DNA from: Cyanophora paradoxa CCMP329
Lineage: Eukaryota > Plantae > Glaucophyta
Direction of reading: 5' to 3'
DNA: 64,000 nt
Assembly (NCBI GenBank): GCA_004431415.1
Contig: QPMI01000424.1
Location: forward strand, 1 to 64,000
Below are positions 17,286 to 42,944 of the stretch, one piece after another. The position numbers and the translations under genes were made by a program. The notes under the pieces are model-generated. The model was not told where the DNA came from, did not search any database, and saw nothing but the letters and a program-made list of their open reading frames with translations. Position 1 is the stretch's first letter. Every line of letters begins with the position of its first letter.

Positions 17286-18220
17286 GCTCGCTTGGGGGTA
17301 GACCCCACCAATTGCGCGCAAAAAAAGCCGACCATGTCAATAAGCAGGTCTTACATCTCCCACAATTCTCAGTGCGAAAATCATAAATTCGCACTGAGCC
17401 ACACTATATTTTTCAAACATCTAACCCTTCCTTACTGAAACCAATCACGAAACCCTTTAATTCTCCATTTTTCTAATTCCTTACCATTCTCAGTAAGCCC
17501 TTTAACCCTCCCCCAATCTCTCAGTAAGGACAGTAAGACCCTTATTTTTACGAAATGTTCCCGATCGTTTCCAAACTGTTTTCAGTTACCCAAATTGAAA
17601 AATCCAGGTAGACCCCACCAATTAAACAAGTGATCCCCACTTAAAGACTTCCCGAATGTATAATGTAACAATGGCAAGCAATCAAGTAAATCTACCTGAG
17701 ACTAAGCGGTGCAATGTTTGCGATAAGGTAAAACCGGCATCGAGTTACGCATTGCAAAAGCGTAGCTCAGGGAATATACTTTTGAATTGGAGATGCAAAG
17801 ACTGCGACCGAGAGTATCACAATTACCTTTATCATTGTGTGTTAAAAACGCGTCCGAAAATCGAAGTACAATCGAAGATATGCTCGCACTGCAAGATTGA
17901 GAAGCTTGCAAGTGAGTTTAATAAAAGACAAAGAACGAAGGATGGTCTCAACTATCAATGCCGAGAGTGTTATAGCAAAACTCGTAAGAGTTAAACAGAA
18001 TTTAATTGTATATTTTTTAAAGCAAGTTTGTGCATGAGCAAGCATGCCGAAAATGCCCACCTGCACAAACTTGCGACTTCAATCGAAATGTACTTCAATC
18101 GAAATGTACTTCAATCGAAATGTACGAATCGAAATGTACGATTAGCATATTTACGACAAAGTACGACGATAGACCACGTTAAAATACACTCGCGCCCCGC
18201 CCACTATGCAAGATACATGC
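17286..18220 (+). repeat. Left TIR of PLV-1 (935 bp)
   Basis: Reverse complement of 42010-42944. One mismatch seen (position 8, T vs C). Contains 3x ACTTCAATCGAAATGT at 18076-18123. Confidence 0.95.
17656..17994 (+). CDS. TIR-encoded tandem C2-C2 zinc-finger protein (start may be 17671)
   Basis: CNVC...CKDC and CSHC...DGL..QCREC, resembling the Zn modules attached to viral HNH/EndoVII nucleases. No nuclease domain. Homologue in PLV-2. Confidence 0.8.
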   Translation: MYNVTMASNQVNLPETKRCNVCDKVKPASSYALQKRSSGNILLNWRCKDCDREYHNYLYHCVLKTRPKIEVQSKICSHCKIEKLASEFNKRQRTKDGLNYQCRECYSKTRKS

Positions 18221-18270
18221 GAACAACATGCGAGATACATATATAAATTGTTTTTCTCTTCCTATAATAA

Positions 18271-19080
18271 ATGAAGACTCACTTTTACCATAAATATACC
18301 GGCAACAAGTATAATGAAATGGATACGATCTATCCATATATCGATTTAGAAGGAATTAATAAAGTTATAGAACCGTTTTGTGGTTCAGGTGCTTGTAGTT
18401 TCTATCTTTGGGAAAAGCATAAAGACCGGTTTGATTATTATATGAATGATAACGACGAAACCCATACCCTTTTTTTGAATACAATGAAAGACCCAGACAA
18501 TAAAGTTAAACTCTTAGAGAGTCTTAAACAGTTCGAAGCAGTTAGCAATATAGAAGAGCATAAAGAAGTCTATAAGAAGTTTCTACAACATGATCGTAAA
18601 GATGCAATGGATTACTTAGCTCACCATTTCTATCTTCTTAAAAACAGCGTTTTAAATGTTAAAACCCTCCGTGATTTCAAAAAACGAAACGTGAAGGTGA
18701 GTCCATATACAACTCTTAAAAAGAAGATGCCTTACGATGATTTCATAAAAGGAGTCAACCTATCCCATGGGGATTTTCGCGATATTGTAGCCAAATATAG
18801 AGATGACGAAGCGGCTTTTATATTTCTCGATCCTCCATACGTAAACAGCAATAATGACTTTTACGAAAATGTAGAATTCGATTTAGAAACCTTCTTTTTG
18901 GATTTGGAAGACCTATTTAAGACAGCGAAATGCAAGGTTATGATGGTTGTAAATGATGCTCTTTTAATGAAACTCCTATTTAAACCCTATATTCGCCATA
19001 CGTATGGCAAAGTGTATGGTATAACAAAACGAAAAAGGAACCATATCATAATGACTAACTATGAACTTGGTGAAAAATAA
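18271..19080 (+). CDS. N6-adenine DNA methyltransferase (Dam/D12-like, alpha class)
   Basis: N-terminal YTGNK, SAM-binding EPFCGSG, YMND, and catalytic FLDPPY. Confidence 0.92.
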   Translation: MKTHFYHKYTGNKYNEMDTIYPYIDLEGINKVIEPFCGSGACSFYLWEKHKDRFDYYMNDNDETHTLFLNTMKDPDNKVKLLESLKQFEAVSNIEEHKEVYKKFLQHDRKDAMDYLAHHFYLLKNSVLNVKTLRDFKKRNVKVSPYTTLKKKMPYDDFIKGVNLSHGDFRDIVAKYRDDEAAFIFLDPPYVNSNNDFYENVEFDLETFFLDLEDLFKTAKCKVMMVVNDALLMKLLFKPYIRHTYGKVYGITKRKRNHIIMTNYELGEK

Positions 19081-19389
19081 CGACTCAGTCGTATATATAT
19101 TTCGTATATATGTCCGAACCTCCGTCTGTATGATCCCGCCCAACTTTGATTTTTTTGTGTTTTTTTTGTTTTTTTCGCATATGACGACATATACATATAT
19201 ATACCGGCGTCACCGACATATTCGGGGTCATCAGATCGCGGCGATTCCGAAAACATATAGCATGCGATAGCGTAGTATTTTTACCTGGCAGGTCTGATCG
19301 TAATGTGATAAACTCTATGGCTGATCGTAATGTGATAGGTGAGATCTCGCCTACGCAGCTCCCGCAGGCACCTTCGTTCGCAGGTCGAT

Positions 19390-19659
19390 GCTGTCAGCCG
19401 ACATGATGCGACAGTATCACGCTGTCAGCCGATATTATGGGGATAACATGATGCTGTCAGCCGACATGATGCGACAGTATCACGCTGTCAGCCGATATTA
19501 TGGGGATAACATGATGCTGTCAGCCGACATTATGCAAATAAAATGATGCTGTCAGCCGACATTATGCGACAGTATCACGCTGTCAGCCGACATTATGCGA
19601 CAGTATCACGCTGTCAGCCGACATTATGCGACAGTATCACGCTGTCAACCGACATTACG
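19390..19659 (+). repeat. Tandem array of 9 units with 31/32-bp period (GCTGTCAGCCGA core) in the main non-coding region of PLV-1
   Basis: Units start at 19390, 19421, 19453, 19484, 19516, 19548, 19579, 19610 and 19641. Confidence 0.95.
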
Positions 19660-20142: not shown

Positions 20143-20535
20143 ATGGATTCCCGATACCGCGGCTACCACGTTATGCTCGACTATATAACCGACCCGTTCA
20201 CCGACTCCCCGGAGGCATGCGCCGAGTGGATCACAGCGAACCTATCGCAATATATCACAGATCGCAAGATGCGCATCGTGCATCAGCACACTTGCATTTT
20301 CGATGGCTCTATTTCCCCTCCTGGTTTCGCGATTGGCTTTCTATTGGATGAGTCGCATGCGACAGCTCACTCTTACAGCGACCAGGGGCTATTAGCGATC
20401 GATATCTTTACATGCGGCTCAAACGCCGAAGCGAAGACAATGGGTATAGCACGGGACATTAACGAACTCATACAAGAAAGGCTGAAAGTTCGAAAGTGGG
20501 ACTTACAGGTCGAGCAAAGGTTCCCAATTTCATAA
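20143..20535 (+). CDS. speD: S-adenosylmethionine decarboxylase proenzyme (prokaryotic class 1b, pyruvoyl-dependent)
   Basis: 130 aa; N-terminal GYH..D, PPGF, autocleavage motif LDE^SH, HSY, and AIDIFTCG. Confidence 0.9.
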   Translation: MDSRYRGYHVMLDYITDPFTDSPEACAEWITANLSQYITDRKMRIVHQHTCIFDGSISPPGFAIGFLLDESHATAHSYSDQGLLAIDIFTCGSNAEAKTMGIARDINELIQERLKVRKWDLQVEQRFPIS

Positions 20536-20560
20536 AAAATGAAAAAAGCGACATATACAT

Positions 20561-20875
20561 TTAATGTTCCTTGATCGGAAACTTGCCCATTAGCGGGTGA
20601 TCGAGACCCATGACATACCAGCATCGCATGACGGGATCCCAGCGGGCTCTCTCAGCCTTCGCTTGATCCTTAAATTCATAAGGAATATCGAGGTAAACCT
20701 TCACGTTTCTTTGATACACTTGCTCATAGCTTAGAGTTTTGAACTGAGAGCATAGGGGGTGATCTTTCTTCGTGACATACCAGCATGAATTCTCACGATC
20801 CCACTTTCCACCGAGGGATTTCGCAACGTCTTTTTTATCATACGGAATGTCAACGAAATGCTTTTCACCCTCCAT
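20561..20875 (-). CDS. Tandem DUF5710-like domain protein
   Basis: Two repeats: FVDIPYDKKDVAKSLGGKWDRENSCWYV and YLDIPYEFKDQAKAERARWDPVMRCWYV. Confidence 0.8.
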   Translation of the reverse strand: MEGEKHFVDIPYDKKDVAKSLGGKWDRENSCWYVTKKDHPLCSQFKTLSYEQVYQRNVKVYLDIPYEFKDQAKAERARWDPVMRCWYVMGLDHPLMGKFPIKEH

Positions 20876-20888
20876 CGCTTTTATATTT

Positions 20889-20908
20889 ACCGGAGAAAAT
20901 AATTTCGG
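20889..20908 (-). promoter_or_regulatory. Putative promoter motif TATTTTCTCCG(G), also at 26658-26677, 27227-27239 and 27788-27798
   Basis: Four copies, each ~8-31 nt upstream of a minus-strand ATG. The first two are identical over 20 bp. Confidence 0.7.
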
Positions 20909-20914
20909 GGTTTG

Positions 20915-22297
20915 TTATGAACGAGATGACCGAAGAATGCGCGTAGTAGGGGCTGTGTAGCTTGCGCTCTGATTCTTGAATGATTTATACCACCGCTGAC
21001 TGTTTACCTCTGAGAGCTTCTCGGTTCCTGCGATCGTTAATTTGGCGAGCTCTCTCAGCGCTCTCTTCGTCTTTTCTGCGCGATCTTCCAGTAGGTCGCC
21101 TTTGGGAACGCTTGCGGCAACATCTATACCTTCCTTTTGAACCTGTCGGATAGAAGCGGCTTCTATTTCGGCTGCTTTGATTGCGTTGCCTGATGGTTCC
21201 ACCACAGCTTCGACCTCTGTAATGATCTGCAATTCGTGCGGCTTAAAAAGCTTCGGCATTACGTTTCCGGATGCATCTTGCACCTCTATTGCGTTTCCTC
21301 TCCTTCCCGCAATTTTGTAGACCTCTCGGCTATACCTTTGAGTCGCCCCTTTATCGAACTTCGATCTCGGCAATAACAGGCGGACGTGGAGACCCGGCGT
21401 AAAGTCGCTGAATATATCCTTGACGATCGTATTCTTTTTCGAAATAATAGCCGCTCGGATCCGATCCATATCAGTAAGCTTAACATCTGCGGGCTTCATT
21501 CCTATTGTTCTGTGAATGGTGTTGTTATAATTGAAAACGAAGTCGTCCAATTTGTCCATGAATCGAACTGTATTATAAGCGACACAGTAATTGTTTATCA
21601 TCGTTTTTAAGGTCAAATGAAAGCGATTCATTATTCCCAGCGAAGTGTGATCTCCGACCTGTTTAAAGCGGTGCTCTATTCCATTATTTTTCACGATCTC
21701 CTGAAACTCCTTCGCGACGAATTCTGAACCGTTATCTGTCTCTAATCGAACCATTGGAGCCGGGAGCTCTGTGAGCATCTCCGCAAAAGCGGCGGCAACA
21801 CTTGCGCCCTCCTTATTCTTTAACTTCTTGGCATATGCTTTTCGGCTCGTCATCTCAATGAGAGTAAGGACTGCAATGTAGCCGGAATTATAGCTGCCAT
21901 ATGAGAGATAAAAGATGAGATCCGCTTGATAGCACCACGGCGGGGCTGTGATGGGAATAAAGGCTGTTTGGGTCGGTGCGGGGGGCTTCTTGTTGATCTG
22001 CATAAATTCTTGTTTCGCTGCGACATCTTGCACTTCTTTCAATGTGAGGCTCTTGTCCTCTTTTCTCAGCTCTTCGTACAATGCCGATGGGTTCTTAAAA
22101 CCTGTCTTTGGGTCATACATGCGGCGCACGATCTTAGAGGACGGGTTAGCAATGCTAAAAGGAACATCTCCTAATAAATTTGATTTTGCTTGGCGTTTTG
22201 TGATTTTTTGGGGGACTTGCTCAGTCTCAGGAACCGCGATAGGTAGTATGGTGGTCTCTGTCTCCTCTCCCGCTACCCTTCTGACGATCCGTGACAT
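20915..22297 (-). CDS. Retroviral-type (rve) integrase of Polinton/PLV type
   Basis: YQADLIF, LETDNGSEF, GIMNRFHLTLK, YNNTIHRTIGMKP and VRL..PRSKFDKG...YSRE. The third catalytic position is Asn. Confidence 0.93.
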   Translation of the reverse strand: MSRIVRRVAGEETETTILPIAVPETEQVPQKITKRQAKSNLLGDVPFSIANPSSKIVRRMYDPKTGFKNPSALYEELRKEDKSLTLKEVQDVAAKQEFMQINKKPPAPTQTAFIPITAPPWCYQADLIFYLSYGSYNSGYIAVLTLIEMTSRKAYAKKLKNKEGASVAAAFAEMLTELPAPMVRLETDNGSEFVAKEFQEIVKNNGIEHRFKQVGDHTSLGIMNRFHLTLKTMINNYCVAYNTVRFMDKLDDFVFNYNNTIHRTIGMKPADVKLTDMDRIRAAIISKKNTIVKDIFSDFTPGLHVRLLLPRSKFDKGATQRYSREVYKIAGRRGNAIEVQDASGNVMPKLFKPHELQIITEVEAVVEPSGNAIKAAEIEAASIRQVQKEGIDVAASVPKGDLLEDRAEKTKRALRELAKLTIAGTEKLSEVNSQRWYKSFKNQSASYTAPTTRILRSSRS

Positions 22298-22315
22298 TCT
22301 TCTAATTAAACCTGT

Positions 22316-25300
22316 TTATTTTTTGCTGCAATTGCACCCGTGATGCGCGAGCTGGCAATTGTCTTTAAGATGCGGGCGCCTGTTGTTTATGCGATCCACG
22401 ACGAGCTTGTAATTCGGATCTTGCGGCTCAATCGGAATCGGAAGGGAACAGAGCGCACAGGCGCCCTTCTGTTGCTTTTTGCGCTCTAATATCCACTCCG
22501 GCGTAATATAATCCGCCTCGTCGAAATCGCGCCCGGCACGCTGATCCTGGCATTTATAACCGCGGATCTTTGTTTTCAGATATTCGATGTAGTCACTCTT
22601 TCCTTGGAACTTGTGAATCGGTGTATAAATCAGCACAGTGGACAGATCGCGGTTACGAGTGAGAGCGGTATAGAACCATTCGCGAGTGGTATAGCGGAAC
22701 GTAGCCTCACAAATGACAATGCCCGAATCAAGTGTGAGACCTTGCGTTGAATGACCTGTTCCTGCATAAGGGAGAGAAAAATGTTCTAACATCGCGCACG
22801 GAACCTCGAACGTGACGCCATCGAAAACGTCAGTTAATGTGACCATTTGCTTTGTAATTTTGGTGATCCGATAGGTGTAATTTGTGTATGCATTAATAGA
22901 CTCACCCTCAGACCGCGAAATGCGTAGATACCTGCGACAAACGACTTCCAGACCCTTGTAGAATTTGATGCCGTTGACCTCTACGGTTGCAATATTTACT
23001 TTTCGTCTATCGTGCATCAGTTTGTTATAGGCTAAGGTCATTTCGTTTCTGTAAGCGATGCCAAAGTAGCCGTCAGGAATTGCGTTTAGATCATTAATTG
23101 TCGGCAACCCGTATTTCGAGATAATCTGTGCGGCTTCGAGTCCGTTTTCGAAGAGATCCTCTTTGATCGCCCGAATTAATTCACGGTCTGTCTCCTTCTT
23201 GTGCCGCTTGTTAATGCGTAGACTCAGGACGTTAGGGAACATGCTCTGAACAGCGCGCTTATAGTAGCCCTTGCGATCAGAAACCGAGAGCTCGTCATTA
23301 ATTGGTTCGTTCTGATAGGTATCGCCATTAGCCAAATATTTGATATCCGGATAGCGATCGATAAACGACTTGATCTTAGCGAGATCTTTTACGGAATACG
23401 CGAATATCTCGTCGAACATAATGTGACTGAACTCGGAGACGAACGCCCTCTGGTCTTTTTCGCTCATAGCCTCTTCGTAGGTCTGATCATTTGAGACACG
23501 GATCCCGAGAACATTATACAAAGTACGAACGGTAATATTTTCGATTCCGCGGACTTTCAGGGAGTCCCTTAGCTCTGCGCACTGTTTGTTATAGGGGCAA
23601 ATAACTAAGCAATTCGACTTCTGAGATGCGAAACAGTTAATACCGAGTGTCGACTTTCCACTTCCGGGCATGTCAGCAAGGACAAGCATACGATTATGGA
23701 GCTCCGCAACCCAATTAAAGCACTCAGGATTAAATTCGTCCCTCAGCGAGAACCGGTTAATGAGTGTCTCGGGATCCTGAAATTCGAGAGTTACACCCCG
23801 TGGTGGGCGGAGTGCATTCTCAGGGCATCTTTTCCCGGGAATATAGCTGAATTTGCCCATGTTCTCAAACGCATTTCGGTCGAACTCTTTCTTACTTGTC
23901 CATGAACCTTCGATATATAGACAGTCCGTTCTGATCCCGGCAACCTTGTGCCCGCGCGCTGTCAGGCGCTTGTATTGCGCAAACATATTAGCACGGTTGC
24001 GATCGTAAATATGAAAGTGGATAGGAAGGAATCCGTTAACGAGCTCGCGGTGGGAGCTGATCTTAACGAAATAGATGTGACCTTCGAATTCGCTAAGAGT
24101 TTTGACACGTTTCGAATTCTTAGGATTGAAAGTAAACACCTCTACTGTTCCTCCGCATTCTTGGGCGAACCTCTCAGCCTCGGCACGGTTGTAGAACATT
24201 TTCGTGGATGTTTGCGAGTCTTGGAATTTGCCGAGCATTCCGATCTCTTTCACTAAAATGTGTTTCTTGTCCGTGGTTTGAATGTCACTTGAAAGCACTT
24301 TTTTCATCTCAGCGATCGACGTATTGGGCACCAAATGCGAAGGCTCCGCGACCGCGATAATCTCTATCTTGTCCTTTACGTCCGCCCAGTGCATGGCGAG
24401 AGTGTAGCCTGTCATGAAATTATAACAGCGACCACTCACGGAAAATGCGCGATCCAGAATAATTTCGACTCCATCAATCTTGCGAGACATGGCGGCATCA
24501 TAATCTACATCCTCATCGTCGGCGAAAGTCGCTTGCTCTCTCTCAAACGCGACCACACGCACGTAGTAGATCGCGTATTCGAGAATATCGCTTCCCACTT
24601 TAAAGGGAACGAAGTCATCGAATACATTGTATTTCGGAAGATATTGCATGCCTTTCAGTATCGAAGGGTAGCACTTCGCCATATCGACGGCTGTGTAGGT
24701 GGCTTTTGGGTTTGGCTTATAGAAATAACCGCTGAGTGCCGATCGCTTGTAGTGCGTGAGAATTTCGCGCATGTTCGGGCTGTAATGTGAGATATTCGTG
24801 GCATTTAGAAGCGACTCCCGGAATCCCTTCCCGATTTCACAGACCTTATTATAATACTCTTCTGTTTCGAAATCTTGCTCAATAAAGTGGTCGGTTGTGC
24901 GTGGATCTTTGATAGAAAACATCGACCCATTGGCTTTGAATGTGATGCTGTCGATTTGTTTCGATGGTGTTAGCTTCACAGCGGGCTCATATCGCATTTT
25001 CAGGAACGTAAATAGAAGACCTTCCAGACCTTCACGCCCAGTATACAGAATGCGAATGAAACTGCGCTCGTCGGGCGATAGTTTAAGTTGCGTGATCTTT
25101 AACAGATCCTTGGATGTGTGCGCGAAGATATCGTGAGTAAGACACGTCGGAATTTTATAGAGTGCTAACGAAGAGTTCGACTTAGGAACATGATTATCGA
25201 GCTCTTCGACCTCCATCTTTGCCATGCGCATTTCGAGCGACTTGATGTTATCGTTGAATATATAGATGTGCTTGTTGTGAATCATAAAGTGAATATTGCG

Positions 25301-26635
25301 GGGAAATATGTTTTTGTTAATCGATTCCGCCGCGAATTTGTATATTAACTTTCCGTCGACATCAAAGACGCGGAAGCCTGTCTGGATTCTCTTACAGAAT
25401 TTCTCGATATGGCGGAGGGTGAGAGCCAGAGAGTCGCCAGGTGTGCGCTCACGACCGTGAAAGAATTTATAGAGACCGTCGTACGACATAGTTAAGTCAG
25501 TATATCGCGGTTTTGGCGCCTCCTGACACTTCTTAATGGACGCTCCCCATGTGGAGATGATCATATCATAGCCGCAAGCGTTAGATGTCGATGATTTGGG
25601 AAGCTCTATTAGATCTTCGAACTCAGACGCGTTTGGATTTAATGTATAGTCTGTGAATTTGCTCATAATCGCGGTGCATCGCATACTGTCCATTAGCTCC
25701 TCATCCAGGAACGCGTAGCGATTGCCAGGTATAGCGCCGGCTCCATCATCATCCTCAGCCGCTTCGGCTCCATCAATCGCGATTTCGTGGACAGTTACAA
25801 AGGCATCATCGATGCTACTACCGAAGTCCACTAAGATTTCACGTAGTTTTCTCTGTTCCGCGGTTGGTGGTGTCTTAAAGAAGAACACCTCGTATGCTTC
25901 GCCGAAAGTTCCCAGACCCATAGCCAATTCATCATAGTTTTCGAGTAAATAGAAGATTGAATCGCTCTCTTCCGAATAATAACGATTTTGATCGGGTCGA
26001 ATGAGAACTCCATACGCTTTATCGATTTTTGCCAGAGCAAAGTTTCGCAACACCCTCACCGAAACTGTCTCTCTTATATTGCGGTAGGTGACAAAGGTTC
26101 TATCTGGTATATTTAATTCGGGAATTCCGGGACGAACGAGCATATCCGACGACCGAGCACCGGATCCAGGCGCCCACATCTTGAACGTAATTGTTGCGAG
26201 AGTTTCCGGATCGTATGCGGCGATTGGGTCGAGAATAGTGCGTTTGATCGCATCCTCTACCGCTTTTAGTTTACCTCTCTGCTGCTTTGCTTCGAGCTTC
26301 GCTTCTTTCGCTCGTTTCTGTTCTTGCTTGCGATCGAAGCGCTGTAAACGCTTAGCCTCTTGTTCTTTTTGCTTCTGCTTTTCTATATTAACTTGGGTGC
26401 GAGCGGCGCGCTTTTCTTTCCGCTCTGCCCTGCGGAAAACGCGGGGATTAATGATTCCATTCAGAGTATCCCGAATGTCGATCAGCGTTTGGAGCTTGGG
26501 CTTCCGATTCATTGTGTTGTGCATCGCCCAATGCGCCTGTTCTTCGGTTAGCAAATCCTGACTCAATCCCTGCATAATGTATCCGATAATTTCATCCCGA
26601 ACATTGTTAGCGATTCTGTTGGTTGCGCGCGGCAT
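22316..26635 (-). CDS. Replication polyprotein: candidate vOTU-like protease + family B polymerase-like palm + SF1 (RecD/Pif1-like) helicase + HNH-like domain
   Basis: NACGYD...HNKHIY (Cys/His); DMAKCYPS, KHILVKEIGML and IRTDCLY (PolB A/B/C variants); PGSGKST, FDEI, GDTYQNEP, HSTQGLT and YTALTR (SF1); CALC...VDRINN..HLKDNCQLAH.GCN (HNH-like). Confidence 0.85.
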   Translation of the reverse strand: MPRATNRIANNVRDEIIGYIMQGLSQDLLTEEQAHWAMHNTMNRKPKLQTLIDIRDTLNGIINPRVFRRAERKEKRAARTQVNIEKQKQKEQEAKRLQRFDRKQEQKRAKEAKLEAKQQRGKLKAVEDAIKRTILDPIAAYDPETLATITFKMWAPGSGARSSDMLVRPGIPELNIPDRTFVTYRNIRETVSVRVLRNFALAKIDKAYGVLIRPDQNRYYSEESDSIFYLLENYDELAMGLGTFGEAYEVFFFKTPPTAEQRKLREILVDFGSSIDDAFVTVHEIAIDGAEAAEDDDGAGAIPGNRYAFLDEELMDSMRCTAIMSKFTDYTLNPNASEFEDLIELPKSSTSNACGYDMIISTWGASIKKCQEAPKPRYTDLTMSYDGLYKFFHGRERTPGDSLALTLRHIEKFCKRIQTGFRVFDVDGKLIYKFAAESINKNIFPRNIHFMIHNKHIYIFNDNIKSLEMRMAKMEVEELDNHVPKSNSSLALYKIPTCLTHDIFAHTSKDLLKITQLKLSPDERSFIRILYTGREGLEGLLFTFLKMRYEPAVKLTPSKQIDSITFKANGSMFSIKDPRTTDHFIEQDFETEEYYNKVCEIGKGFRESLLNATNISHYSPNMREILTHYKRSALSGYFYKPNPKATYTAVDMAKCYPSILKGMQYLPKYNVFDDFVPFKVGSDILEYAIYYVRVVAFEREQATFADDEDVDYDAAMSRKIDGVEIILDRAFSVSGRCYNFMTGYTLAMHWADVKDKIEIIAVAEPSHLVPNTSIAEMKKVLSSDIQTTDKKHILVKEIGMLGKFQDSQTSTKMFYNRAEAERFAQECGGTVEVFTFNPKNSKRVKTLSEFEGHIYFVKISSHRELVNGFLPIHFHIYDRNRANMFAQYKRLTARGHKVAGIRTDCLYIEGSWTSKKEFDRNAFENMGKFSYIPGKRCPENALRPPRGVTLEFQDPETLINRFSLRDEFNPECFNWVAELHNRMLVLADMPGSGKSTLGINCFASQKSNCLVICPYNKQCAELRDSLKVRGIENITVRTLYNVLGIRVSNDQTYEEAMSEKDQRAFVSEFSHIMFDEIFAYSVKDLAKIKSFIDRYPDIKYLANGDTYQNEPINDELSVSDRKGYYKRAVQSMFPNVLSLRINKRHKKETDRELIRAIKEDLFENGLEAAQIISKYGLPTINDLNAIPDGYFGIAYRNEMTLAYNKLMHDRRKVNIATVEVNGIKFYKGLEVVCRRYLRISRSEGESINAYTNYTYRITKITKQMVTLTDVFDGVTFEVPCAMLEHFSLPYAGTGHSTQGLTLDSGIVICEATFRYTTREWFYTALTRNRDLSTVLIYTPIHKFQGKSDYIEYLKTKIRGYKCQDQRAGRDFDEADYITPEWILERKKQQKGACALCSLPIPIEPQDPNYKLVVDRINNRRPHLKDNCQLAHHGCNCSKK

Positions 26636-26804
26636 CTCTATTAGTTCTTTTAAAATAACCGGAGAAAATAATTTCGGCGCAATCTACCAAATCCTCCTTT
26701 TCATACCCTTGTCGCCAATTCTTTAAGTGCTTTTTTGACGGATACGGGGAATAAAAAGGGAGGTAAAAAATTAATCATTTTTTGCATCGTACGGATACTT
26801 TCCG

Positions 26805-27218
26805 CTACGAATTTTTTGCGTTCTCGACGACATGCTTTCGGGGTCTCCCAGCGGGCTTTTGCGGCTGGGGCTTCACCGGCGGATTCAGCTTTCGTTCCGC
26901 TCTTTTTCTGCGTTGGTATTCCCGTGCCTTTTCCCTGATTTTCTCCCGATACTCTTCATCGTCTTGGTATCGCTGCTGTTTACGAATTGCGATCTTTTGT
27001 AGCTGCTCCGGGGTAAATACGGTCGCTTCCCCTGCGGCTAATCGCTCCTGTTTCTGTCTCTGATGCTTGTTTCGCTGCCTCTCGGCGTCTTTTTCGCGTT
27101 TTAGTCTTAATCTCTCCGCCTTCTCCTCTTCTGTGATCACCTTCTTCGGTCGCCCGGGTCTGCGCTTTTCTTGCTGTGCCGCCATTGCCTCTTGGTTTGA
27201 AATCTTGGGTTTCGCCAT
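26805..27218 (-). CDS. AT-hook / charged coiled-coil DNA-binding protein
   Basis: RRPGRPKK and GRPRK flank a Lys/Arg/Glu-rich helix; promoter motif upstream. Confidence 0.75.
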   Translation of the reverse strand: MAKPKISNQEAMAAQQEKRRPGRPKKVITEEEKAERLRLKREKDAERQRNKHQRQKQERLAAGEATVFTPEQLQKIAIRKQQRYQDDEEYREKIREKAREYQRRKRAERKLNPPVKPQPQKPAGRPRKHVVENAKNS

Positions 27219-27342
27219 TTACTATAACCGGAGAAAATAGTTTTTTGTCACTCTGTATTATTTCCCTTGCCCTTATATACCTTTTACCGAAACCTTCAAT
27301 TTTTGCGCTCGGATCGATACAAGCGCCACCGAAATTCACCGC

Positions 27343-27756: not shown

Positions 27757-27805
27757 CGATCCTACAAGGACGCAACGTATTAAATATCGGAGAAAATAAA
27801 AGGGA

Positions 27806-34264: not shown

Positions 34265-37200
34265 ATGTCGTTCCTGAATCCGAGACCCGATGCACGAGTA
34301 ATTAATTCGACCACGCAGATAGAGGACACTGACCAGGTAAACACCGAAATTCGTGGGTCTATCAGAATAAATTACAATGCAGACCGCGAAGATCCAGTCA
34401 GTGGAACACCGAGCAGACCCGCAGCTTTGCAGTTAATGAACGTCGAGAAGGGGGATCATAAACTTGGAATCGACTTTTTACTTGATGATAACGAGCGAAA
34501 CAGAGTTGCCAGCATCCAGGCGACTCGGCAGTTACCGAAAACGGTGCGCTATAATCGCAGGAACATTCCCAAAGCATTCGACAAGGGTCGCTTAAACTTC
34601 TTTATCCAAGATGAAAGCGGTTTCCAAAATGCAGCTATGAGAATCGTGGATAATAGCACGCTTATAGCCGGGGTTTCAAACAGACAGACAAAGGTAGAAA
34701 TTGTTCACGGTTTATCTACAAGTAATTTGACAGCAAGTAACATTACCACGAATACCCTAAACGTAAACTCGCTTAACTCTGAGTCGTTTTTCGCCACTAA
34801 TGTCGCTACATGCAATCTAACCCTTGATTCATTTATAATTCAGAAGAGCAACACTGTTCCCCAAATCACAGAGGGCGTTTTTACAGTAGATCCCGCGAAA
34901 CCAGTGTTAGAGATCCTCGAAAACGGGAGCGTTGTAAATATAATTGGTGCCAATGCCCCGAATGTGCGATCCATAGCTCTTGATAAAACGACTATCTCGT
35001 TTGCTGAGGAAGTTCCGACATTTACCACAGAGAAACAAGCACTGAGAACCGATCACGTTCACATTACCAGACAAAATGTAAACGATCTTTTGGGCAAGGA
35101 CATTGTAAAGGCGTTTTTGGAGTTCGAGAGGAACAAGAACACCAAAGATTCCAGCCAGGATGGAACCCTCACGACTCACACAACCGAAATAGCCGCAATA
35201 CAATCGGAGATTAATGCACTGTTTGCAGCAGATGGAGCGCTTGCAATTACCTTAGCCCATATTCTATCGAAAAGGAACATTTACCCCGCGACTGATAACA
35301 CATACCGAGTTGGTCTCTCGAATCTGAGATGGTCAGAGGTGCATGGAGTTTCCATGTTTGCCTCCAATTTAATCCTTCCATTAAATCACTCACTCCGACC
35401 TAATCAGATTCTTACCAATGATAATGCACTGATCAGCTACACCGACTATAATAGTAATCTTTCCCGCTCGGTTTCGCAAACTGAGACCTACACTGTCGAG
35501 GGATACCCTCAGCAGCTCGCAAATGGGGTCTATGTCGCTTATGTAGGCAAACCTACATATACATTCACTTGGGATCAGTTGGGTGTCACAGGTTTCGAGA
35601 CGAATATACCCACTGTTTCATTGGTGGATCACACTACTTATTATAATCCTATCTATAACAATAATGAATCTAATAAAGCATTTATCCAAAATGTCACCTC
35701 CACAGGGTTTCAGGTTTCGTTTGTCATTAACGAGACATACAATTTACTTATCATCCGAAACAACTCATTTAGTTCCGAAGCTACTATTAGTTTCACTCTC
35801 ACCATCAATTACATTAGCCCTGTATTCGATAGCAAACCCAGAGTAAAGGTTTACCGAGATTTACAAGGTAGCAATATCGTTCCTTTCTCACAGAATTTCG
35901 ATCTTGGGGCGAATTCTTTGAGGTGGAACACAGTTTACTCAATGAATGCAAACACCTGTAATATTGTGGTCGCAGGTTCATCGGCTACTATTGGAGATCT
36001 GACCGCCCCTTTCAAAAGGAGTATCTTAAAGAGCTGTATATTACAAAGTCTGATTTACCAGATGCTATTTCGTTGGTGCTCTCCCCGACTCCCAGCATCT
36101 CATACCACAATGTGAAAGACACCAGTAATGTAGTGCAGAGGGGAAGCAAAGTATTCCAGGCATCCGAGATATCAGCAACAACATATAGATACCTTGCAGC
36201 GGTTCCAGCGAATTTTAATTTCACATTTGAGACACCATTTGTTTCCCCTCCTACTATTGAAATTACCGACACGAATTTGTATGTGGTAAATGATGGGTCA
36301 GCTACATCACTTCAAAATGCACCAGCCGGCTACTCTCCATTTGTCGCAACAAATATAACAACAACCGGCTTTACACTTGTCGGAAATGCAACAGTGACCT
36401 ATGCTCTGTCAGGATATCCTGTTGGGTTGTATTTTTCGAAATTTAATCTCTCTGTTATCCCAGCAGTGTCTCTTGCTCCTCCCTTTACTATCAGTTGGAA
36501 GGCAACAGGAACTATTCCACGATTTGACCCCGAAGATCGATTAAAAATAAGGTATCCTCTCGATGTTACCGACATTCATACTACGAGAATAAATGGGCAG
36601 AATTTCGTATTTAATGGAACCAATGCGACTCTGATCGATAATCGAGTTACAAATAATTACTTTTTCGATTCTCGATATATTAATACTTGCAATATTGTCA
36701 TACAAAACACGTTTGAAAATCGCAGTAAGACCTTAACAGTCACCTTGCCCACTCACTCGAATGTCTCAGATGGATTTCACTATTATCTTTTCAATCGTAA
36801 TTACACCTCATATATTCCATATCCTTCTGAGACTGTCAACATGAGCTATCCCAGAGTCACCCTAACATCGACCAATGCTGACTTCTTTGGATCCACGGAC
36901 TTTATGACCTTCTTTGCTTTCACATCGTCCACAGATGGTCTCTTAGTTTATTACACTTTCAGGTATGATGCTGTTTGGACTCAGCTTGACAGCCACCCAA
37001 ATACAGATGTAATTGAAGTGGGCGATAAGAAATATATTAAAACCGCTTCCCCATGGGTGTGCACTGTCCGGCTCGATGATAGATACACTCCCAACCTAAA
37101 TAACATTGGAATGCACTCGACTTGCAATATTTATGTGCAAGGTGCAATTTCGGCTACCAAATATTTCGAGGGTGGGAACTGTGATGCAGCCCATAGGTTG

Positions 37201-37971
37201 CTATCGAGAAATGGACTCTTTGAGTCATTTAGTGGGACAGCTCTACCCCCTTTCATCAGGGACACAGTCTATGATACTACATGCAATATTTGGGTGTGCC
37301 GATCTGTGAGCAACCCGCCTGTAACACAGGAATTATACAAGTATCTCGCAGATAAATATGGTGCAATCGCAGGCTCATCAACAGGAAATCCAGCGACGGC
37401 TCCCATCGTGTTTGCAAATGCATACACAGCGCCAACGTCGTTAGCAGGGTCGACAGAGCCGCCACCAAACGATCCCAATCCGAACCAGCCTAACCCAGAT
37501 CCCGATTCAAAAGATCCCCCTACAACTGATCCAGATCCGAACACGACACCTAATAATCCCTCAAATCCTACAAATCCAGTCGGATCGCCAGGAATGGATC
37601 CCGGGACGTTAGTGCTTCTCATTCTCTTGCCAATTCTCGGTGCCCTTGGACTTGTGCTTGCATACAAATTCCGAGCTTTATGTTGTGCTTGCATAGACAG
37701 AACCATTGCAGGAGCAGGTAATAAATACTCAACGCCTGAACTGAATGTGACCCAAACAGCCGAAGGAGATGTGGGGTTAGAGGTGAGGTCAGCCGAGGGG
37801 CATGGTCTTAGTGTAGTGAGAACTGATCAACCACCAGCAAGTAGGGCAGCACCCAAAAAATCGCGAGCAGAACGAATGGCTGAATCAATAATAAAAGATA
37901 ATGCAGACTTTATGGCGGAAATGGCACAGCGAGAAGGGAGAATATATGAACATGTTCCAAATGTTATGTAG
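34265..37971 (+). pseudogene. Large fibre-like protein with C-terminal TM helix, frameshifted at 36014-36017 (real or sequencing error)
   Basis: ORFs 34025-36115 and 36073-37971 join if one A is added (A4 here, A5 in PLV-2), matching the intact PLV-2 gene. Confidence 0.85.
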
Positions 37972-38009: not shown

Positions 38010-39548
38010 ATGACGGAACCCATAGTAGAAACGACAGTAAAGAATGCTGTATTGGATAATCAATTTTATATAACCCATGCCAATATACCCAGTGAATCCA
38101 ATGACCTAATTGTTAATCTAAAAGGCTATGTGATGGGAGCTATGGCTTCTAACCTATGGAATGACCTTTTCGGTTACGAGTTTGGTCACATCTATGACAT
38201 TGCAAATGGGATCGGCTATGTGGATGCGATGGCAGGCACAGCCTTTCGAAATCTAAATTGCAACTGTGTGGGTGGGTGGATGTTTCAGATCTGTTCAAAT
38301 GTCGATCCTACTATTGATCCCGCCACGATAACCTTTGATTGCAATCTGTTTGCCCCCAAAACCATTTTCTCCATCACTTGCAATCTCGTTAATTCGGATG
38401 TGCCCATTGTGGCACCTCTCATGGGTGCATCCAATATGTATATTCGAAGATACCCTGTTGTTCACACAGGTGGAGAGTATGTGATCCCAGATGATCCAGC
38501 TATAATGCCTATTAAAATCGATCTCCCTTCGGATTATGTAGGGAGGGGGGAACTGAAAACCGTTTCATTTACAGGAGACTATAATGATCTCATTAATAAA
38601 CCCACCGCAGCAAATCTACACCCTGTTGCATTTTCGGGGAGTTTCCTCGACCTTAATAATAGATCACACACCCACACAAAGGCAGAAATCACAGATTTTG
38701 CACACACTCACACCAAATCACAAATTACAGATTTTGCACACTATCACACCCGAGCAGACATTACGAATTTCGCTCACACTCATGTTAAATCAGAGATTTT
38801 AGATCTCGGAAATGTTGCATATGTTGGTCACACCCACACCAAGGCAGAGATTACAGATCTTGGAAATGTTGCATATGTAGGTCACACCCACACTAAGGCA
38901 GAGATTACAGATTTTGCACACACTCATGATTGGAATACAGATATCTATAACAAACCTGCAATTTTCTCAGGAAACTACAATGATTTGACCAATAGACCAA
39001 CTCTTGATCCTTTCACAGCCACCACAATCAGAGCCAACAACACAATGTATGTAGGATCAGGTCAGATTGTAGAACCAGCAGGACCTATGTTTGAAGAAAC
39101 ATGGTTCTTCCACAATTCGCAGAATTACTTTGATAAAACCTTACTTGTTCGTGGAAATGCCTATGCAAGAAATTTCTATGCTATGAACCCCTCAAATAAT
39201 GCGACCATCAGTCGATGTATTACAGAGGCAGATCTTTCCAGTCAACTCAATGCATATTTTAATGGGAAAATCCAAGCAGGAACGTATGTTTACACTACTC
39301 CTTATCTTTGGGCAAATCCTGACCATAGGTTTAACCTCACTATTAATTTCAACAGCAGCTTTGCTAACCCTCCTATTGTAACAACTGGTATACAACACAA
39401 TGAGACAGCCTACTACTACCGCATGTATGTAAGGCTTAAACAAGTTTACAGTAGCTATTTCACTTGTGAGCTTGACATAGTTCCATTAAGTTCTTTTGAC
39501 AGACCAGGATTTCCAGTTACAATTCATTACACTGCTGTCGCAATTTAA
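38010..39548 (+). CDS. Fibre protein with phage-type HTH repeats and H-type-lectin-like tip
   Basis: HTHTKAEITDF repeats, SG.YNDL.N.P repeats, and C-terminal IQAG...FNSSFANPPIVTT...IHYTAV. Confidence 0.8.
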   Translation: MTEPIVETTVKNAVLDNQFYITHANIPSESNDLIVNLKGYVMGAMASNLWNDLFGYEFGHIYDIANGIGYVDAMAGTAFRNLNCNCVGGWMFQICSNVDPTIDPATITFDCNLFAPKTIFSITCNLVNSDVPIVAPLMGASNMYIRRYPVVHTGGEYVIPDDPAIMPIKIDLPSDYVGRGELKTVSFTGDYNDLINKPTAANLHPVAFSGSFLDLNNRSHTHTKAEITDFAHTHTKSQITDFAHYHTRADITNFAHTHVKSEILDLGNVAYVGHTHTKAEITDLGNVAYVGHTHTKAEITDFAHTHDWNTDIYNKPAIFSGNYNDLTNRPTLDPFTATTIRANNTMYVGSGQIVEPAGPMFEETWFFHNSQNYFDKTLLVRGNAYARNFYAMNPSNNATISRCITEADLSSQLNAYFNGKIQAGTYVYTTPYLWANPDHRFNLTINFNSSFANPPIVTTGIQHNETAYYYRMYVRLKQVYSSYFTCELDIVPLSSFDRPGFPVTIHYTAVAI

Positions 39549-39567
39549 CTATTTGATTAATATAAAG

Positions 39568-40641
39568 ATGACCTCTGTATTAGAGATCCCAAACTATGAA
39601 CTTGCAGCAAAATCACTACACAGCACCTCTCATGAAGTAGTTGATTCTACACCCGGGTTTATTTGCACTGAAACTTCAAGTAATACCTCTTTCACAGAGA
39701 ATAATATACTCAGAGTCAAAGAGATTCGATGTGATCGCAATGGAGGCAAGATAAGAACCACAGGAATTATTATCTCGAATAAAAATCAAGTTCAAGCAGG
39801 TCAAGTAGTCCCAGATTCAGCAGTGTATGATAATGTGGGTGGATTCACCACAGCAAAGATAGTAACTTTCGATAACACAATAAATAATTCGGCTCTTGTT
39901 GTCAAGAGTGGAGGAGCATACATTGGAGATGGGGCAATTGTGGTGGGGACTGTTACAGCAAATCAATTGAATGTGAGTGGGACAAGTTCATTTACAGGAT
40001 TGATGACCTTTAATGGAGGTCTATCAGGAAGTATTCAGTATGGAACTCTCACACTGTCAACAAGACTAACAACTCCTGAGAGTAACACAATTGCAGACAC
40101 CAACTTCATTTACAAACGAAATGGAAGCGCAATTGTGACATTACAAAATATTCAAACAACACCATCAAATAGAGAAGCAATCGTATTTTCATCAGGTAGC
40201 TATCTGAAACGAAATGGTTGCCCTCGTTTTATGGCTTCGGCAATGACAGCAAATGCAGCAGTAGCTCTTCTTGGTAAAACTTCGGCAAGTTCCTTCCCAT
40301 TCACAGGCATTCTCATCAACCATGGAAATCGCTTTGCTGGTGCTACTGGAACGTTTACAGCTCCCATTACAGGAACCTATCGCTTTTTTTTCAACATTGA
40401 AACAACAAACAATGATGGGATGAACGGAACCATAGTCCTCAATATACGAAAAAATGGTGCATCTTCGACAAACGAGGCAACTGGGACATTTTCATCCTCT
40501 GTATCAAGGCTCAATATTTCATACGAATGCATCATCGACCTCGCTGCAAATGATTGGGTCAGAGTGTATAACAACTCTGCCACTGGGATTGAATACACCA
40601 ATCGATCTCACTTTGGAGGAATGCTGATAAGCGCCACATAA
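39568..40641 (+). CDS. Fibre protein with C-terminal C1q-like domain (1)
   Basis: GTFTAPITGTYRFFF...IDLAANDWVRV...FGGMLI; ATG at 39568 follows TATAAAG. Confidence 0.85.
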   Translation: MTSVLEIPNYELAAKSLHSTSHEVVDSTPGFICTETSSNTSFTENNILRVKEIRCDRNGGKIRTTGIIISNKNQVQAGQVVPDSAVYDNVGGFTTAKIVTFDNTINNSALVVKSGGAYIGDGAIVVGTVTANQLNVSGTSSFTGLMTFNGGLSGSIQYGTLTLSTRLTTPESNTIADTNFIYKRNGSAIVTLQNIQTTPSNREAIVFSSGSYLKRNGCPRFMASAMTANAAVALLGKTSASSFPFTGILINHGNRFAGATGTFTAPITGTYRFFFNIETTNNDGMNGTIVLNIRKNGASSTNEATGTFSSSVSRLNISYECIIDLAANDWVRVYNNSATGIEYTNRSHFGGMLISAT

Positions 40642-40663
40642 TATTGTTACTTTAAAGTAAAGA

Positions 40664-41683
40664 ATGTCCACACAAATTGCTGTTCCTGTTTTCTGTTATG
40701 CCGCCCCAAAATTGCATCAGCTCAACCACACAGTAACAGATGCAACCCCTGGGTTTATTTGCACAGAATCCACAGGAGCTGATTCATTTTCTCAAAATTC
40801 GGTGATCAGATGCAAAGAGATACGATGTGATCGCAATAATGGAAAGGTGAGAACCACTGGTTTAATTGTGTCAAATAAGAACCAAGTCCAATCGGGATCG
40901 ATTGTATCAGATTCAGCAATTTATGATGATGTGGGAGGGTTCACCACACCCAAAATTATTACTTTTGACAACACCATTAATAACTCTGCTCTTGTAGTAA
41001 GAAGTGGAGGAGCCTACATTGGAGATGGGGCAAAGATTGATGGGACACTTACAGCATCTCAACTTTCCGTGACAGGGACAACCACTTTCACAGGATTAGT
41101 AACAGCAAGTGGTGGAGTCTCAGTATCAACCACCTCTCAACCCACCATTACTGCAACTACAAGGTTAGTAACCCCTGAAATCGATACAGGGGCAAATGTT
41201 GATCTTGTGTTGAAGCGAAATAGCAATACAGTAGCAACACTTGAACCCAATTCATTAACAATTAATACAGGTTGTTATTTAAAGAACAGCTTCCAACCAA
41301 GGTTCTGCTTCCGATTGGGATATAATCACACTGCAACTTCTTCGACCGCTCTCATTAATTGGGCAACAGATATTGTTAATGTCACTGGATCTTTCACTGG
41401 GTCATCTGGAAGATTTACAGCTCCTGTTGCTGGACATTATCGATTCTCAGTTTATACCAACTCAACAACATCATCCGCAATTCAGCTTTTTTTCAAATTG
41501 AATGATGCCGACCCTGGGGGCATTTCTCTAACTGCTTCACACACAGGCACATTAATAAAACCTCTTCATCTGTCTTGCATTCTCAATCTTGCAGCTAATG
41601 AGTATGTTACAGTTTGGACAGGAACCACAGGCACATATTCCTCTGCAACAACATTCTGTGGAGAGCTGATCAGTATAACATAA
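40664..41683 (+). CDS. Fibre protein with C-terminal C1q-like domain (2), paralogue of (1)
   Basis: N-terminal ~130 aa closely similar to (1); GRFTAPVAGHYRF...LNLAANEYV...FCGELI. Confidence 0.85.
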   Translation: MSTQIAVPVFCYAAPKLHQLNHTVTDATPGFICTESTGADSFSQNSVIRCKEIRCDRNNGKVRTTGLIVSNKNQVQSGSIVSDSAIYDDVGGFTTPKIITFDNTINNSALVVRSGGAYIGDGAKIDGTLTASQLSVTGTTTFTGLVTASGGVSVSTTSQPTITATTRLVTPEIDTGANVDLVLKRNSNTVATLEPNSLTINTGCYLKNSFQPRFCFRLGYNHTATSSTALINWATDIVNVTGSFTGSSGRFTAPVAGHYRFSVYTNSTTSSAIQLFFKLNDADPGGISLTASHTGTLIKPLHLSCILNLAANEYVTVWTGTTGTYSSATTFCGELISIT

Positions 41684-41704
41684 ATTTCTCTTGTTATAGT
41701 AAGA

Positions 41705-41968
41705 ATGTCGAATATCTACCAAGTAGTTCTTTCAGATACTGAGAAATTGGGAATGGAGTTCTGCGCTGCATCTGTTCAGGATTGGATCGATAATGCTGCC
41801 CATAACAGAGCAAGAATTGCAATTGATGAGATTGTTCAGAAAGAAATCCACTCTTGCATCTCAGGTGGAGTTCAAATACCAACCTCAAAGGAAGCGATTG
41901 TATTACAGGCATTCCAAAGGGGAACTGTGAAGAAAGCAATTGAATATAATACAGTTGCTGAGGAATGA
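41705..41968 (+). CDS. Small phage-like tail-fibre-associated protein (possible chaperone)
   Basis: VQDWIDNAAHNRARIAIDEIV...IP.SKEAIV..AF resembles small proteins that follow C1q fibre genes in aquatic phages (from recall); conserved in PLV-2. Confidence 0.7.
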   Translation: MSNIYQVVLSDTEKLGMEFCAASVQDWIDNAAHNRARIAIDEIVQKEIHSCISGGVQIPTSKEAIVLQAFQRGTVKKAIEYNTVAEE

Positions 41969-42009
41969 AGTCTAAATTAATTGGTTTTTCATATAGCATG
42001 CATAGAAAG

Positions 42010-42944
42010 GCATGTATCTTGCATAGTGGGCGGGGCGCGAGTGTATTTTAACGTGGTCTATCGTCGTACTTTGTCGTAAATATGCTAATCGTACATTTCG
42101 ATTCGTACATTTCGATTGAAGTACATTTCGATTGAAGTACATTTCGATTGAAGTCGCAAGTTTGTGCAGGTGGGCATTTTCGGCATGCTTGCTCATGCAC
42201 AAACTTGCTTTAAAAAATATACAATTAAATTCTGTTTAACTCTTACGAGTTTTGCTATAACACTCTCGGCATTGATAGTTGAGACCATCCTTCGTTCTTT
42301 GTCTTTTATTAAACTCACTTGCAAGCTTCTCAATCTTGCAGTGCGAGCATATCTTCGATTGTACTTCGATTTTCGGACGCGTTTTTAACACACAATGATA
42401 AAGGTAATTGTGATACTCTCGGTCGCAGTCTTTGCATCTCCAATTCAAAAGTATATTCCCTGAGCTACGCTTTTGCAATGCGTAACTCGATGCCGGTTTT
42501 ACCTTATCGCAAACATTGCACCGCTTAGTCTCAGGTAGATTTACTTGATTGCTTGCCATTGTTACATTATACATTCGGGAAGTCTTTAAGTGGGGATCAC
42601 TTGTTTAATTGGTGGGGTCTACCTGGATTTTTCAATTTGGGTAACTGAAAACAGTTTGGAAACGATCGGGAACATTTCGTAAAAATAAGGGTCTTACTGT
42701 CCTTACTGAGAGATTGGGGGAGGGTTAAAGGGCTTACTGAGAATGGTAAGGAATTAGAAAAATGGAGAATTAAAGGGTTTCGTGATTGGTTTCAGTAAGG
42801 AAGGGTTAGATGTTTGAAAAATATAGTGTGGCTCAGTGCGAATTTATGATTTTCGCACTGAGAATTGTGGGAGATGTAAGACCTGCTTATTGACATGGTC
42901 GGCTTTTTTTGCGCGCAATTGGTGGGGTCTACCCCCGAGCGAGC
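42010..42944 (-). repeat. Right TIR of PLV-1 (935 bp)
   Basis: Reverse complement of 17286-18220. Confidence 0.95.
42236..42574 (-). CDS. Second identical copy of the TIR zinc-finger gene
   Basis: Same 112-aa translation as 17656-17994. Confidence 0.8.
   Translation of the reverse strand: MYNVTMASNQVNLPETKRCNVCDKVKPASSYALQKRSSGNILLNWRCKDCDREYHNYLYHCVLKTRPKIEVQSKICSHCKIEKLASEFNKRQRTKDGLNYQCRECYSKTRKS

Follow-up and report, generated by a model that had tools for sequence, protein, structure and literature searches.

Tlr1 joins genes for a major capsid protein (MCP), a minor capsid protein (mCP), a packaging ATPase and an integrase of the rve family to a fusion of a PolB palm with a superfamily 1 (SF1) helicase, and it has no maturation protease (PMC5499653). 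Tlr1-like replicases are ordered terminal protein, vOTU, palm and helicase (TP-vOTU-palm-S1H), and HNH tails occur in Polinton-like viruses (PLVs; PMC11161782, PMC5499653). We considered how an element at 17286-42944 of a 64-kb window compares with these systems, the window being the whole stretch analysed, positions 1 to 64,000 of contig QPMI01000424.1 of the glaucophyte Cyanophora paradoxa CCMP329. The element, 25,659 bp integrated in the C. paradoxa chromosome, is a member of a catalogued yet unnamed and unplaced family of Tlr1-like PLVs of a glaucophyte. We hold with considerable confidence that it is an integrated PLV genome bounded by terminal inverted repeats (TIRs), likely of the Tlr1 type and with C. 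paradoxa as its likely host, which would spread as copied linear DNA, packaged in a double-jelly-roll capsid and reinserted by its rve integrase. This reading draws on the boundaries and target site duplication (TSD), the gene set, the modelled capsid fold, the many related copies in the host and the near identity of the MCP to published sequences.

The two TIRs (17286..18220 and 42010..42944, 935 bp each, the left one holding a 16-bp sequence repeated four times in tandem) differ at a single position, 17293, and are 99.9% identical. They are flanked by a 6-bp TSD, CTTCTG, at 17280..17285 and 42945..42950; a target duplication of 6 bp is the typical outcome of rve integration. The first-pass annotation had described a complete 25.7-kb element with TIRs and a 6-bp TSD, which is what we find, and its suggestion of recent activity holds insofar as the near-perfect TIRs argue for a recent insertion. 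The GC content of the element is 0.444, against 0.642 and 0.633 in the flanks, and 20 distinct intron-free open reading frames (ORFs), together with the second copy of a gene that lies in the TIRs, fill about 85% of it. All 20 distinct ORFs were scanned against Pfam and the PHROGs, and 14 of the proteins against NCBIfam.

A 1439-aa protein encoded on the minus strand at 22316..26635, which the first-pass annotation omitted, is likely a replicase of the Tlr1 type, as judged from PHROG matches and motifs. Its SF1 helicase (residues ~973-1343) matches a Dda-like PHROG at E 3e-13, with weak RecD-type matches besides, and its C-terminus (1354-1439) is an endonuclease VII/HNH domain (PHROG EndoVII, E 8e-9). 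Upstream of the helicase lie PolB-like motifs A (D651), B (the K796 region) and C (TD at 903-904, with the first Asp replaced), preceded by a candidate vOTU dyad, C354/H456; the PolB-like motifs and the Cys354/His456 pair are all retained in the sole homologue found, P0009. No match to the replicase was found among phage genomes. We suggest that this protein is likely a Tlr1-type fusion of PolB palm, SF1 helicase and endonuclease, its palm and vOTU parts being recognised at the level of motifs.

The neighbouring genes for integration and packaging are those that the first-pass annotation had named. The integrase (20915..22297, minus strand) matches PF00665 at E 1e-13 and, when aligned with HTLV-2 integrase, keeps D126 and D188, while Asn224 replaces the catalytic Glu. 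The insertion looks recent all the same, so the residue may be typical of the family, a lesion of this copy, or the mark of a copy whose insertion was done in trans. The A32-like genome-packaging ATPase (28647..29513, minus strand) matches PF04665 (Pox_A32) at E 2e-10, with Walker A and B motifs present. Word-indexed protein searches returned one homologue each for the MCP, the ATPase and the replicase.

The element thus resembles Tlr1 and the pPolB-S1H PLVs in its double-jelly-roll MCP, A32 ATPase, rve integrase with TSD, SF1 helicase within a large replicase, nuclease tail and lack of a protease. It differs from Tlr1 in that the Tlr1 replicase tail is of the GIY-YIG type, unlike the EndoVII/HNH tail here, and Tlr6F was not found in the element. 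OmPLV of Oxyrrhis marina is similar in size (~25 kb), in its TIRs (up to 858 bp), in a helicase-PolB fusion of ~1,500 aa and in having no protease; in contrast to the present element, however, its helicase lies N-terminal to a full pPolB with exonuclease, and it has a tyrosine recombinase, a resolvase, no TSD and no detected penton (PMC12721341).

The first-pass annotation had classed the element as a PLV-type endogenous virus without a recognisable adenain-type maturation protease, and both parts of that claim hold. No Ulp1/adenain protease was matched in the Pfam, PHROG or NCBIfam scans, and a scan for protease motifs returned two partial matches that lie antisense to the fibre and C1q genes; a very divergent protease may be conceivable among the 137-, 227- and 87-aa proteins that belong to no assigned family. 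The annotation had also treated this absence as unusual, which we do not find: it is normal for PLVs and for Tlr1 (PMC5499653), and given a Tlr1-type replicase it is ordinary.

The MCP (437 aa; 29572..30885, minus strand) has no match in Pfam, PHROGs or NCBIfam and was recognised from its AF2 model, from Foldseek and PDB matches and from near identity to MCPs in Table S2 of PMC10120064. A HMMER search of 1.84 billion representatives returned five homologues at E <= 0.001, one of which, P0002, is 37% identical and carries the EukProt label Cyanophora paradoxa, the other four being unnamed Logan/ENA proteins. Modelled from a 6-sequence alignment (pLDDT 60.9), the MCP folds as a double jelly roll, in support of the first-pass annotation's MCP call. 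Foldseek matches the model to iridovirus and PBCV-1 MCPs at E ~1e-17 to 1e-18 and to the SGIV MCP at E 2e-18, and the named top matches in BFVD are giant-virus MCPs, many rows being nameless. Among 48,161 PDB representatives, Nucleocytoviricota capsid or scaffold proteins take the first eight places (Z 22.5-15.8; rmsd 3.6-5.4 over 313-354 aligned residues), headed by a PBCV-1 capsid chain at Z 22.5 (VIA); PRD1 (Z 14.1), Sputnik (12.6), mavirus (12.2) and the adenovirus hexon (7.9) rank lower. In the ESM Atlas, Capsid_N/Capsid_NCLDV occurs in 12-18% of the members of its neighbours, the recognition score falling short of the threshold set by the tool. The nearest structural and language-model neighbours are therefore Nucleocytoviricota capsids, as the first-pass annotation had proposed from capsid motifs, and the model supports a shell that is giant-virus-like relative to virophages. 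This likeness is not a phylogenetic placement, since sequence identity to giant-virus MCPs is just 8-14% and no Polinton or PLV MCP structure is among the PDB matches listed.

Two genes next to the MCP likely encode pentons (minor capsid proteins), each match lying below the threshold of its tool. Penton 1 (308 aa; 30933..31859, minus strand) matches DUF5901 at E 0.0019, and penton 2 (281 aa; 31876..32721, plus strand) lies at 0.97 to ESM Atlas clusters in which DUF5901 occurs in 12% and Sputnik V18/19 in 44% of members, with a recognition score below threshold; the two candidates are similar to each other at E 1e-7. We accept the two pentons of the first-pass annotation on this evidence, which is weaker than that for the MCP. 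Between this element and a related one in the same window, penton 1 differs by 21 synonymous and 8 non-synonymous codons and penton 2 by 19 and 7, or 40 against 15 for both, and this preponderance of synonymous changes is a signal of selection.

Several points count against this reading of the element as a Tlr1-type viral genome. No virion has been demonstrated. The PolB and vOTU parts of the replicase are supported by motifs and one 22%-identical homologue; a single-sequence model of residues 251-961 (pLDDT 34) gave no usable fold, and neither Pfam nor further profile scans returned a PolB match for the protein. This copy has Asn at the third catalytic position of its integrase. The quality of the MCP model is moderate, and the pentons are assigned at the level of sequence and language model. 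Finally, the MCP of the related element is frameshifted and its patatin truncated, so that some copies are decaying or mis-assembled.

The family has already entered the literature as rows in tables. The portion of the main text of Bellas 2023 (PMC10120064) covered does not mention Cyanophora by name; six C. paradoxa MCPs are entered in its Table S2, where HHpred matches to capsids of iridovirus, ascovirus and Pyramimonas virus confirm them. Compared by eye, our MCP shows 4 differences over the first 239 residues from one of these entries (gene_37737) and 8 over 308 from another (gene_3321), and a third entry is P0002; it falls within the cluster definition used there (at least 25% identity over at least 30% of length). 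Table S4 of the same study assigns 366 C. paradoxa MCP matches to two clusters, 272 to one and 94 to the other; both (numbers 21 and 29 by our own column count) are marked 'new' and given no group name, and the table has a separate 'Tlr' cluster. Table S6 of Bulzu 2025 (PMC12220804) covers 156 Glaucocystophyceae elements, with A32 in 139, rve in 85, SF1 helicase in 34, lipase in 89, S-adenosylmethionine decarboxylase (AdoMetDC) in 66, D12 methylase in 10 and maturation protease in none. The MCP models of that study recognised 2 of the 156, and surveys under-report the Cyanophora family because current MCP models miss it. The same source reports AdoMetDC in cryptophyte PLVs (10/177, 17/57 and 45/706) and mentions fusions of discoidin with patatin, as well as a C. 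paradoxa PLV whose fibre has two phage tail repeats and an H-lectin (PTR-PTR-H-lectin). Starrett 2021 reports adintovirus-like proteins in C. paradoxa contigs.

The present element thus shares with these Cyanophora endogenous viruses a near-identical MCP, the tabulated content and the fibre architecture, while none of the texts covered mentions its pair of C1q proteins, its transmembrane protein, its two pentons or the complete order of its genes. The first-pass annotation did not recognise the combination of genes, a judgement that this comparison does not support: the MCPs and the gene mix are tabulated for C. paradoxa, lipases and phage-like fibres are common among PLVs (Barth 2026 reports common lipases and module swapping, and the Gezel preprint a fibre and a lipase in virions), and two mCP genes occur in some Trimcap B members (10.64898/2026.06.19.733378). 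Its further suggestion of an undescribed group stands in part. The MCP falls in a listed cluster of like tabulated content, which is half of the outcome that the annotation named as refuting; that cluster is unnamed, and we found no description of it. Both the family as such and the list of its genes are thus already published, as table rows. The literature searched contained no paper describing or placing the Cyanophora family, although preprint supplements and figures, which were outside its coverage, may place it; the covered text of the 2026 framework preprint, supplement aside, contains neither 'cyano' nor 'glauc' (10.64898/2026.06.19.733378).

A capsid leaning towards the nucleocytoplasmic large DNA viruses (NCLDVs) in a PLV is a known theme, since the Tlr1 and OmPLV MCPs fall between PLVs and NCLDVs (Haro 2025, PMC12721341) and the framework preprint contains several PLV-sized groups with giant-virus-like capsid modules. 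Among the named groups, Mriyaviricetes (PMC11253617), Zora VC102/VC134/VC218 and Zephyr share such a module with the element, in genomes of 20-45 kb; rve is frequent in Zora and VC218, and Zephyr includes polB-SF1 fusions and lipases at ~25 kb (10.64898/2026.06.19.733378). Zephyr is, however, a large group without endogenous examples, in contrast to an MCP here that has five homologues. Mriyaviruses are 35-45 kb and have neither polymerase nor integrase (PMC11253617), unlike this element with its 25.7 kb, rve and PolB-like motifs, and on these grounds we rejected a mriyavirus; HUH, VLTF2 and VLTF3 had no Pfam or PHROG match among the 20 ORFs, mriyavirus-specific profiles lying outside the scan. 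Mavericks/Polintons, Gosseviruses and virophages have in common with the element the TIRs, 6-bp TSD, rve (in Mavericks and Mavirus), A32 ATPase, double-jelly-roll MCP and probably a penton, but they carry a cysteine maturation protease, and none was found here. Maverick/Polintoviricetes was rejected for that reason and because there is no match to the stand-alone pPolB PF03175 and the replicase is fused to an SF1 helicase; a virophage (Virophaviricetes) was rejected on the missing protease and on MCP scores of Z 12.2-12.6 to mavirus and Sputnik as against up to 22.5 to giant viruses. Related loci were not found in IMG/VR viral contigs (searched with the MCP, P0003, P0007, alignment A4, the integrase and alignment A5) or in JGI metagenomes, in searches that required near-exact peptide words and so do not imply absence.

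A second element, inverted and cut by the window end, occupies 51828..64000 on the minus strand. It is 94.8% identical to the first over the 8.8-kb core from MCP to fibre but 74-77% identical in the right arm and TIR; its MCP is frameshifted at ~63153 and its patatin has a premature stop at codon 428. Where the complete element has two C1q genes the sister has one, 32-33% identical to them, and its fibre is 50% identical across the first 358 residues. The sister is thus a mosaic variant; we rejected a recent duplicate because the TIRs are just 77% alike. In the receptor-binding arm (38010-41968 against 52861-55643) the fibre tails and the number of C1q genes are hypervariable while the capsid core is ~95% identical, which likely reflects module exchange. 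The right flanks of the two elements (42945-42951 and 51821-51827) share 5 of 6 target bases, or 6 of 7 with the next base; these are two sites, and no target preference is claimed.

Evidence on further copies comes from contigs of public DNA runs, all 24 of the 24 listed being under one organism label. These contigs span all stretches compared, and those of the core are ~20-45x deeper than those exactly matching the C1q region of this copy (~1800-2350 against 53-66 in run X1; ~1140-1560 against 45-55 in X15), which suggests tens of copies in the host, although contig depth is not itself a copy number. The same contigs bear on the one frameshift of the element, near 36015 in the membrane-anchor gene: contigs with a one-base insertion there make up the entire depth in X1, X2 and X8 and about half of it in X15, and one-base insertions at 15711, 15824 and 16852 in the left flank appear in all three DNA runs compared. 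Because the short-read contigs carry these insertions, the break probably reflects an error of assembly, though it may also be a rare allele that the contigs have lost, and the three flank insertions suggest residual indel errors in the window assembly. A presumed-RNA run gave scattered low-depth contigs, which we do not count as evidence of expression.

The remaining genes of the element are as follows. The gene in the TIRs encodes a 112-aa CxxC zinc-ribbon protein (17656..17994, plus strand; second copy 42236-42574, minus strand; PHROG Lar-like/endonuclease VII zinc ribbon, E 2e-13). It is followed on the plus strand by a Dam-like D12 N6-adenine methyltransferase (18271..19080; PF02086, MethyltransfD12, E 1e-15; DPPY motif), which is an optional cassette in the family, as public-run contigs join across 18234-19076. 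A 31-bp tandem array of 8.5 copies (19387..19657) sits inside a 1.06-kb non-coding gap, the sole long one in the element, and may be an origin or a protein-binding array. Beyond it are an AdoMetDC proenzyme of the prokaryotic-type class (20143..20535, plus strand; PF02675 E 2e-11, TIGR03330 E 4e-12), with the E70/S71 cleavage site and C91 present, and a tandem DUF5710 protein (20561..20875, minus strand; PF18974 E 5e-24). Between replicase and ATPase, all on the minus strand, lie a basic AT-hook protein of 137 aa (26805..27218; PF02178 E 0.003), another 137-aa protein (27343..27756) with no match in Pfam, PHROGs or NCBIfam, and a charged low-complexity protein of 227 aa that adjoins the ATPase (27961..28644; weak matches, E 0.026 or worse).

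Beyond the pentons, a patatin-like phospholipase (32728..34221, minus strand; PF01734 E 4e-22, PDB patatin E 7e-17) ends in a ~160-aa domain with no profile match, Pfam included, that is likely discoidin-like. It is followed, on the plus strand, by a large protein, rich in beta structure, that has a transmembrane helix at its C-terminus (34265..37971; hydropathy 2.74), split here into ORFs of 616 and 376 aa and a single 1239-aa ORF in the sister; a 512-aa fibre with PTRs and a C-terminal H-type lectin (38010..39548; PF12789 E 5e-8, PF09458 E 4e-4); C1q-domain proteins A (357 aa; 39568..40641; PF00386 E 2e-11) and B (339 aa; 40664..41683; PF00386 E 3e-7; 45% identical to A); and an 87-aa protein (41705..41968) that is 80% identical in the sister. 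The metabolic enzyme, lipase, membrane anchor and phage fibres of the first-pass annotation are all accounted for in this inventory. An exact-sequence lookup of 13 proteins of the window found none in a 15-billion collection.

Four non-structural genes on the minus strand are each preceded, ~20-40 nt upstream, by a co-oriented 12-nt motif (at 20889, 26658, 27227 and 27786; 20889..27797). The motif has no other match in the 64 kb, and the shuffled mean is 0.69 with none of 100 shuffles reaching 4, for a motif that was selected after the upstream regions had been inspected; we regard it as a candidate promoter. Weaker variants precede the MCP and methylase genes, and five start codons have, 8-11 nt before them, another short motif that is TATA-like and occurs elsewhere too.

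The host DNA around the elements contains repeats of several kinds. A degenerate GC-rich tandem array (400-1480, ~nine units with a period of ~121-131 bp) is followed by a 162-bp inverted pair (3515-3676 and 8966-9127, 93%) around a 5.3-kb stretch of lower GC, whose ORF-like pieces (4932-5378 and 7882-8787) have no Pfam match and are possibly a mobile or viral remnant. Dispersed repeats, consistent with a repeat-rich region, occur at 9758-10046 and 45346-45634 (289 bp, 99%) and at 1510-1594 and 48866-48950 (85 bp, 93%); the latter is tRNA-like by eye, and ARAGORN called no tRNA gene in the window. Between the two elements, 46000-51800 has 47-57% GC and ORFs (46245-46736 and 50256-50711) without Pfam match, possibly a degraded insertion.

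What follows on replication mode, particles, entry, silencing of the locus and any dependence on a helper is inference. The provirus would likely be kept silent by host CpG methylation; in C. paradoxa, viral-origin genes are enriched among methylated genes and giant-virus remnants are reported (Sarre 2025, PMC12344493). The replicase would prime at the TIR ends through its own terminal-protein part, which the vOTU-like domain would release; with the SF1 helicase opening the duplex in front of the PolB palm, the genome would be copied as linear DNA. Packaging would fall to the A32 ATPase, into a shell built from the MCP and both kinds of penton; as for Tlr1 and the majority of PLVs, no separate maturation protease would take part. 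Attachment to the cell surface would be the task of the fibre, H-lectin and C1q proteins, and patatin would open a membrane at entry. These proposed entry genes are the most divergent part between copies. Finally, rve would reinsert the genome, making the 6-bp duplication. General biochemistry suggests two roles for AdoMetDC: it would rather probably supply decarboxylated SAM (S-adenosylmethionine) for spermidine, compacting the packaged DNA, or, a doubtful alternative, drain SAM and so weaken silencing by methylation.

How the element is expressed, and whether it still forms particles, admits other answers. Dependence of transcription on a co-infecting giant virus we put at about even odds. 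A strictly virophage-like parasite, expressed under giant-virus infection through the transcription machinery of that virus and acting in host defence, is a serious possibility that falls a little short of an even chance. Dependence on giant viruses, or action against them, is recorded for Gezel/PgVV, for a C. parva PLV and for three Tetraselmis PLVs, the giant-virus remnants in C. paradoxa (PMC12344493) fit such a partner, and among the 20 ORFs there is no RNA polymerase or transcription-factor match in Pfam or PHROGs. The 12-nt motif shared by four non-structural genes also speaks for it, but this motif differs from the WWWWWTGW early promoter common to Gezel and its helper and no more than partly resembles the TCCGGA of Tetraselmis virus 1; TsV-N1, moreover, was isolated as a nuclear lytic PLV, and fibres and lipase are found in both lifestyles.

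It is unlikely, in our view, that the family is now an intragenomic self-synthesising transposon, or dead, with capsid genes as relics. The drift argued for OmPLV (PMC12721341) would be of this kind, and the broken MCP and patatin of the sister, the frameshifted MCP fragments in the Bellas table (PMC10120064) and the Asn at the integrase catalytic site are what it would predict; yet the penton changes are mostly synonymous, the fibre/C1q arm has diverged to 32-50% aa identity against ~95% for core DNA, as expected of selected receptor-binding proteins, and one-base assembly indels even in the flanks mean that the breaks may be artificial. It is very improbable that the element is a piece of an endogenised giant virus (Nucleocytoviricota). 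The MCP neighbours are Nucleocytoviricota, and DUF5901 and Pox_A32 occur in giant viruses; the terminal structure largely rules it out, however, as 935-bp TIRs and a TSD close an element with its own rve and Tlr1-like replicase, present in many copies, with no VLTF, RNA polymerase or D5 match in Pfam or PHROGs and an MCP identity to giant-virus MCPs of 8-14%.

We therefore return to an integrated Tlr1-type PLV, and its place among the groups with giant-virus-like capsids is the part worth pursuing. We tentatively suggest, as a possibility that we would not call probable, that the Cyanophora family is a deep unnamed lineage of its own, on that side of the capsid tree where the Nucleocytoviricota lie and with mriyaviruses, Zora and Zephyr as neighbours. 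It would combine a Tlr1-type module for replication and integration with a giant-virus-type shell that has two pentons and a membrane-anchored protein, in tens of near-intact copies and with an AdoMetDC that drains the methyl donor against silencing. Small viruses whose capsids are giant-virus-like currently attract attention as living relatives of the Nucleocytoviricota ancestors, and they are mostly metagenome finds without hosts (10.64898/2026.06.19.733378). A multicopy family in a cultured glaucophyte would permit direct study of particles, expression, silencing and helper dependence.

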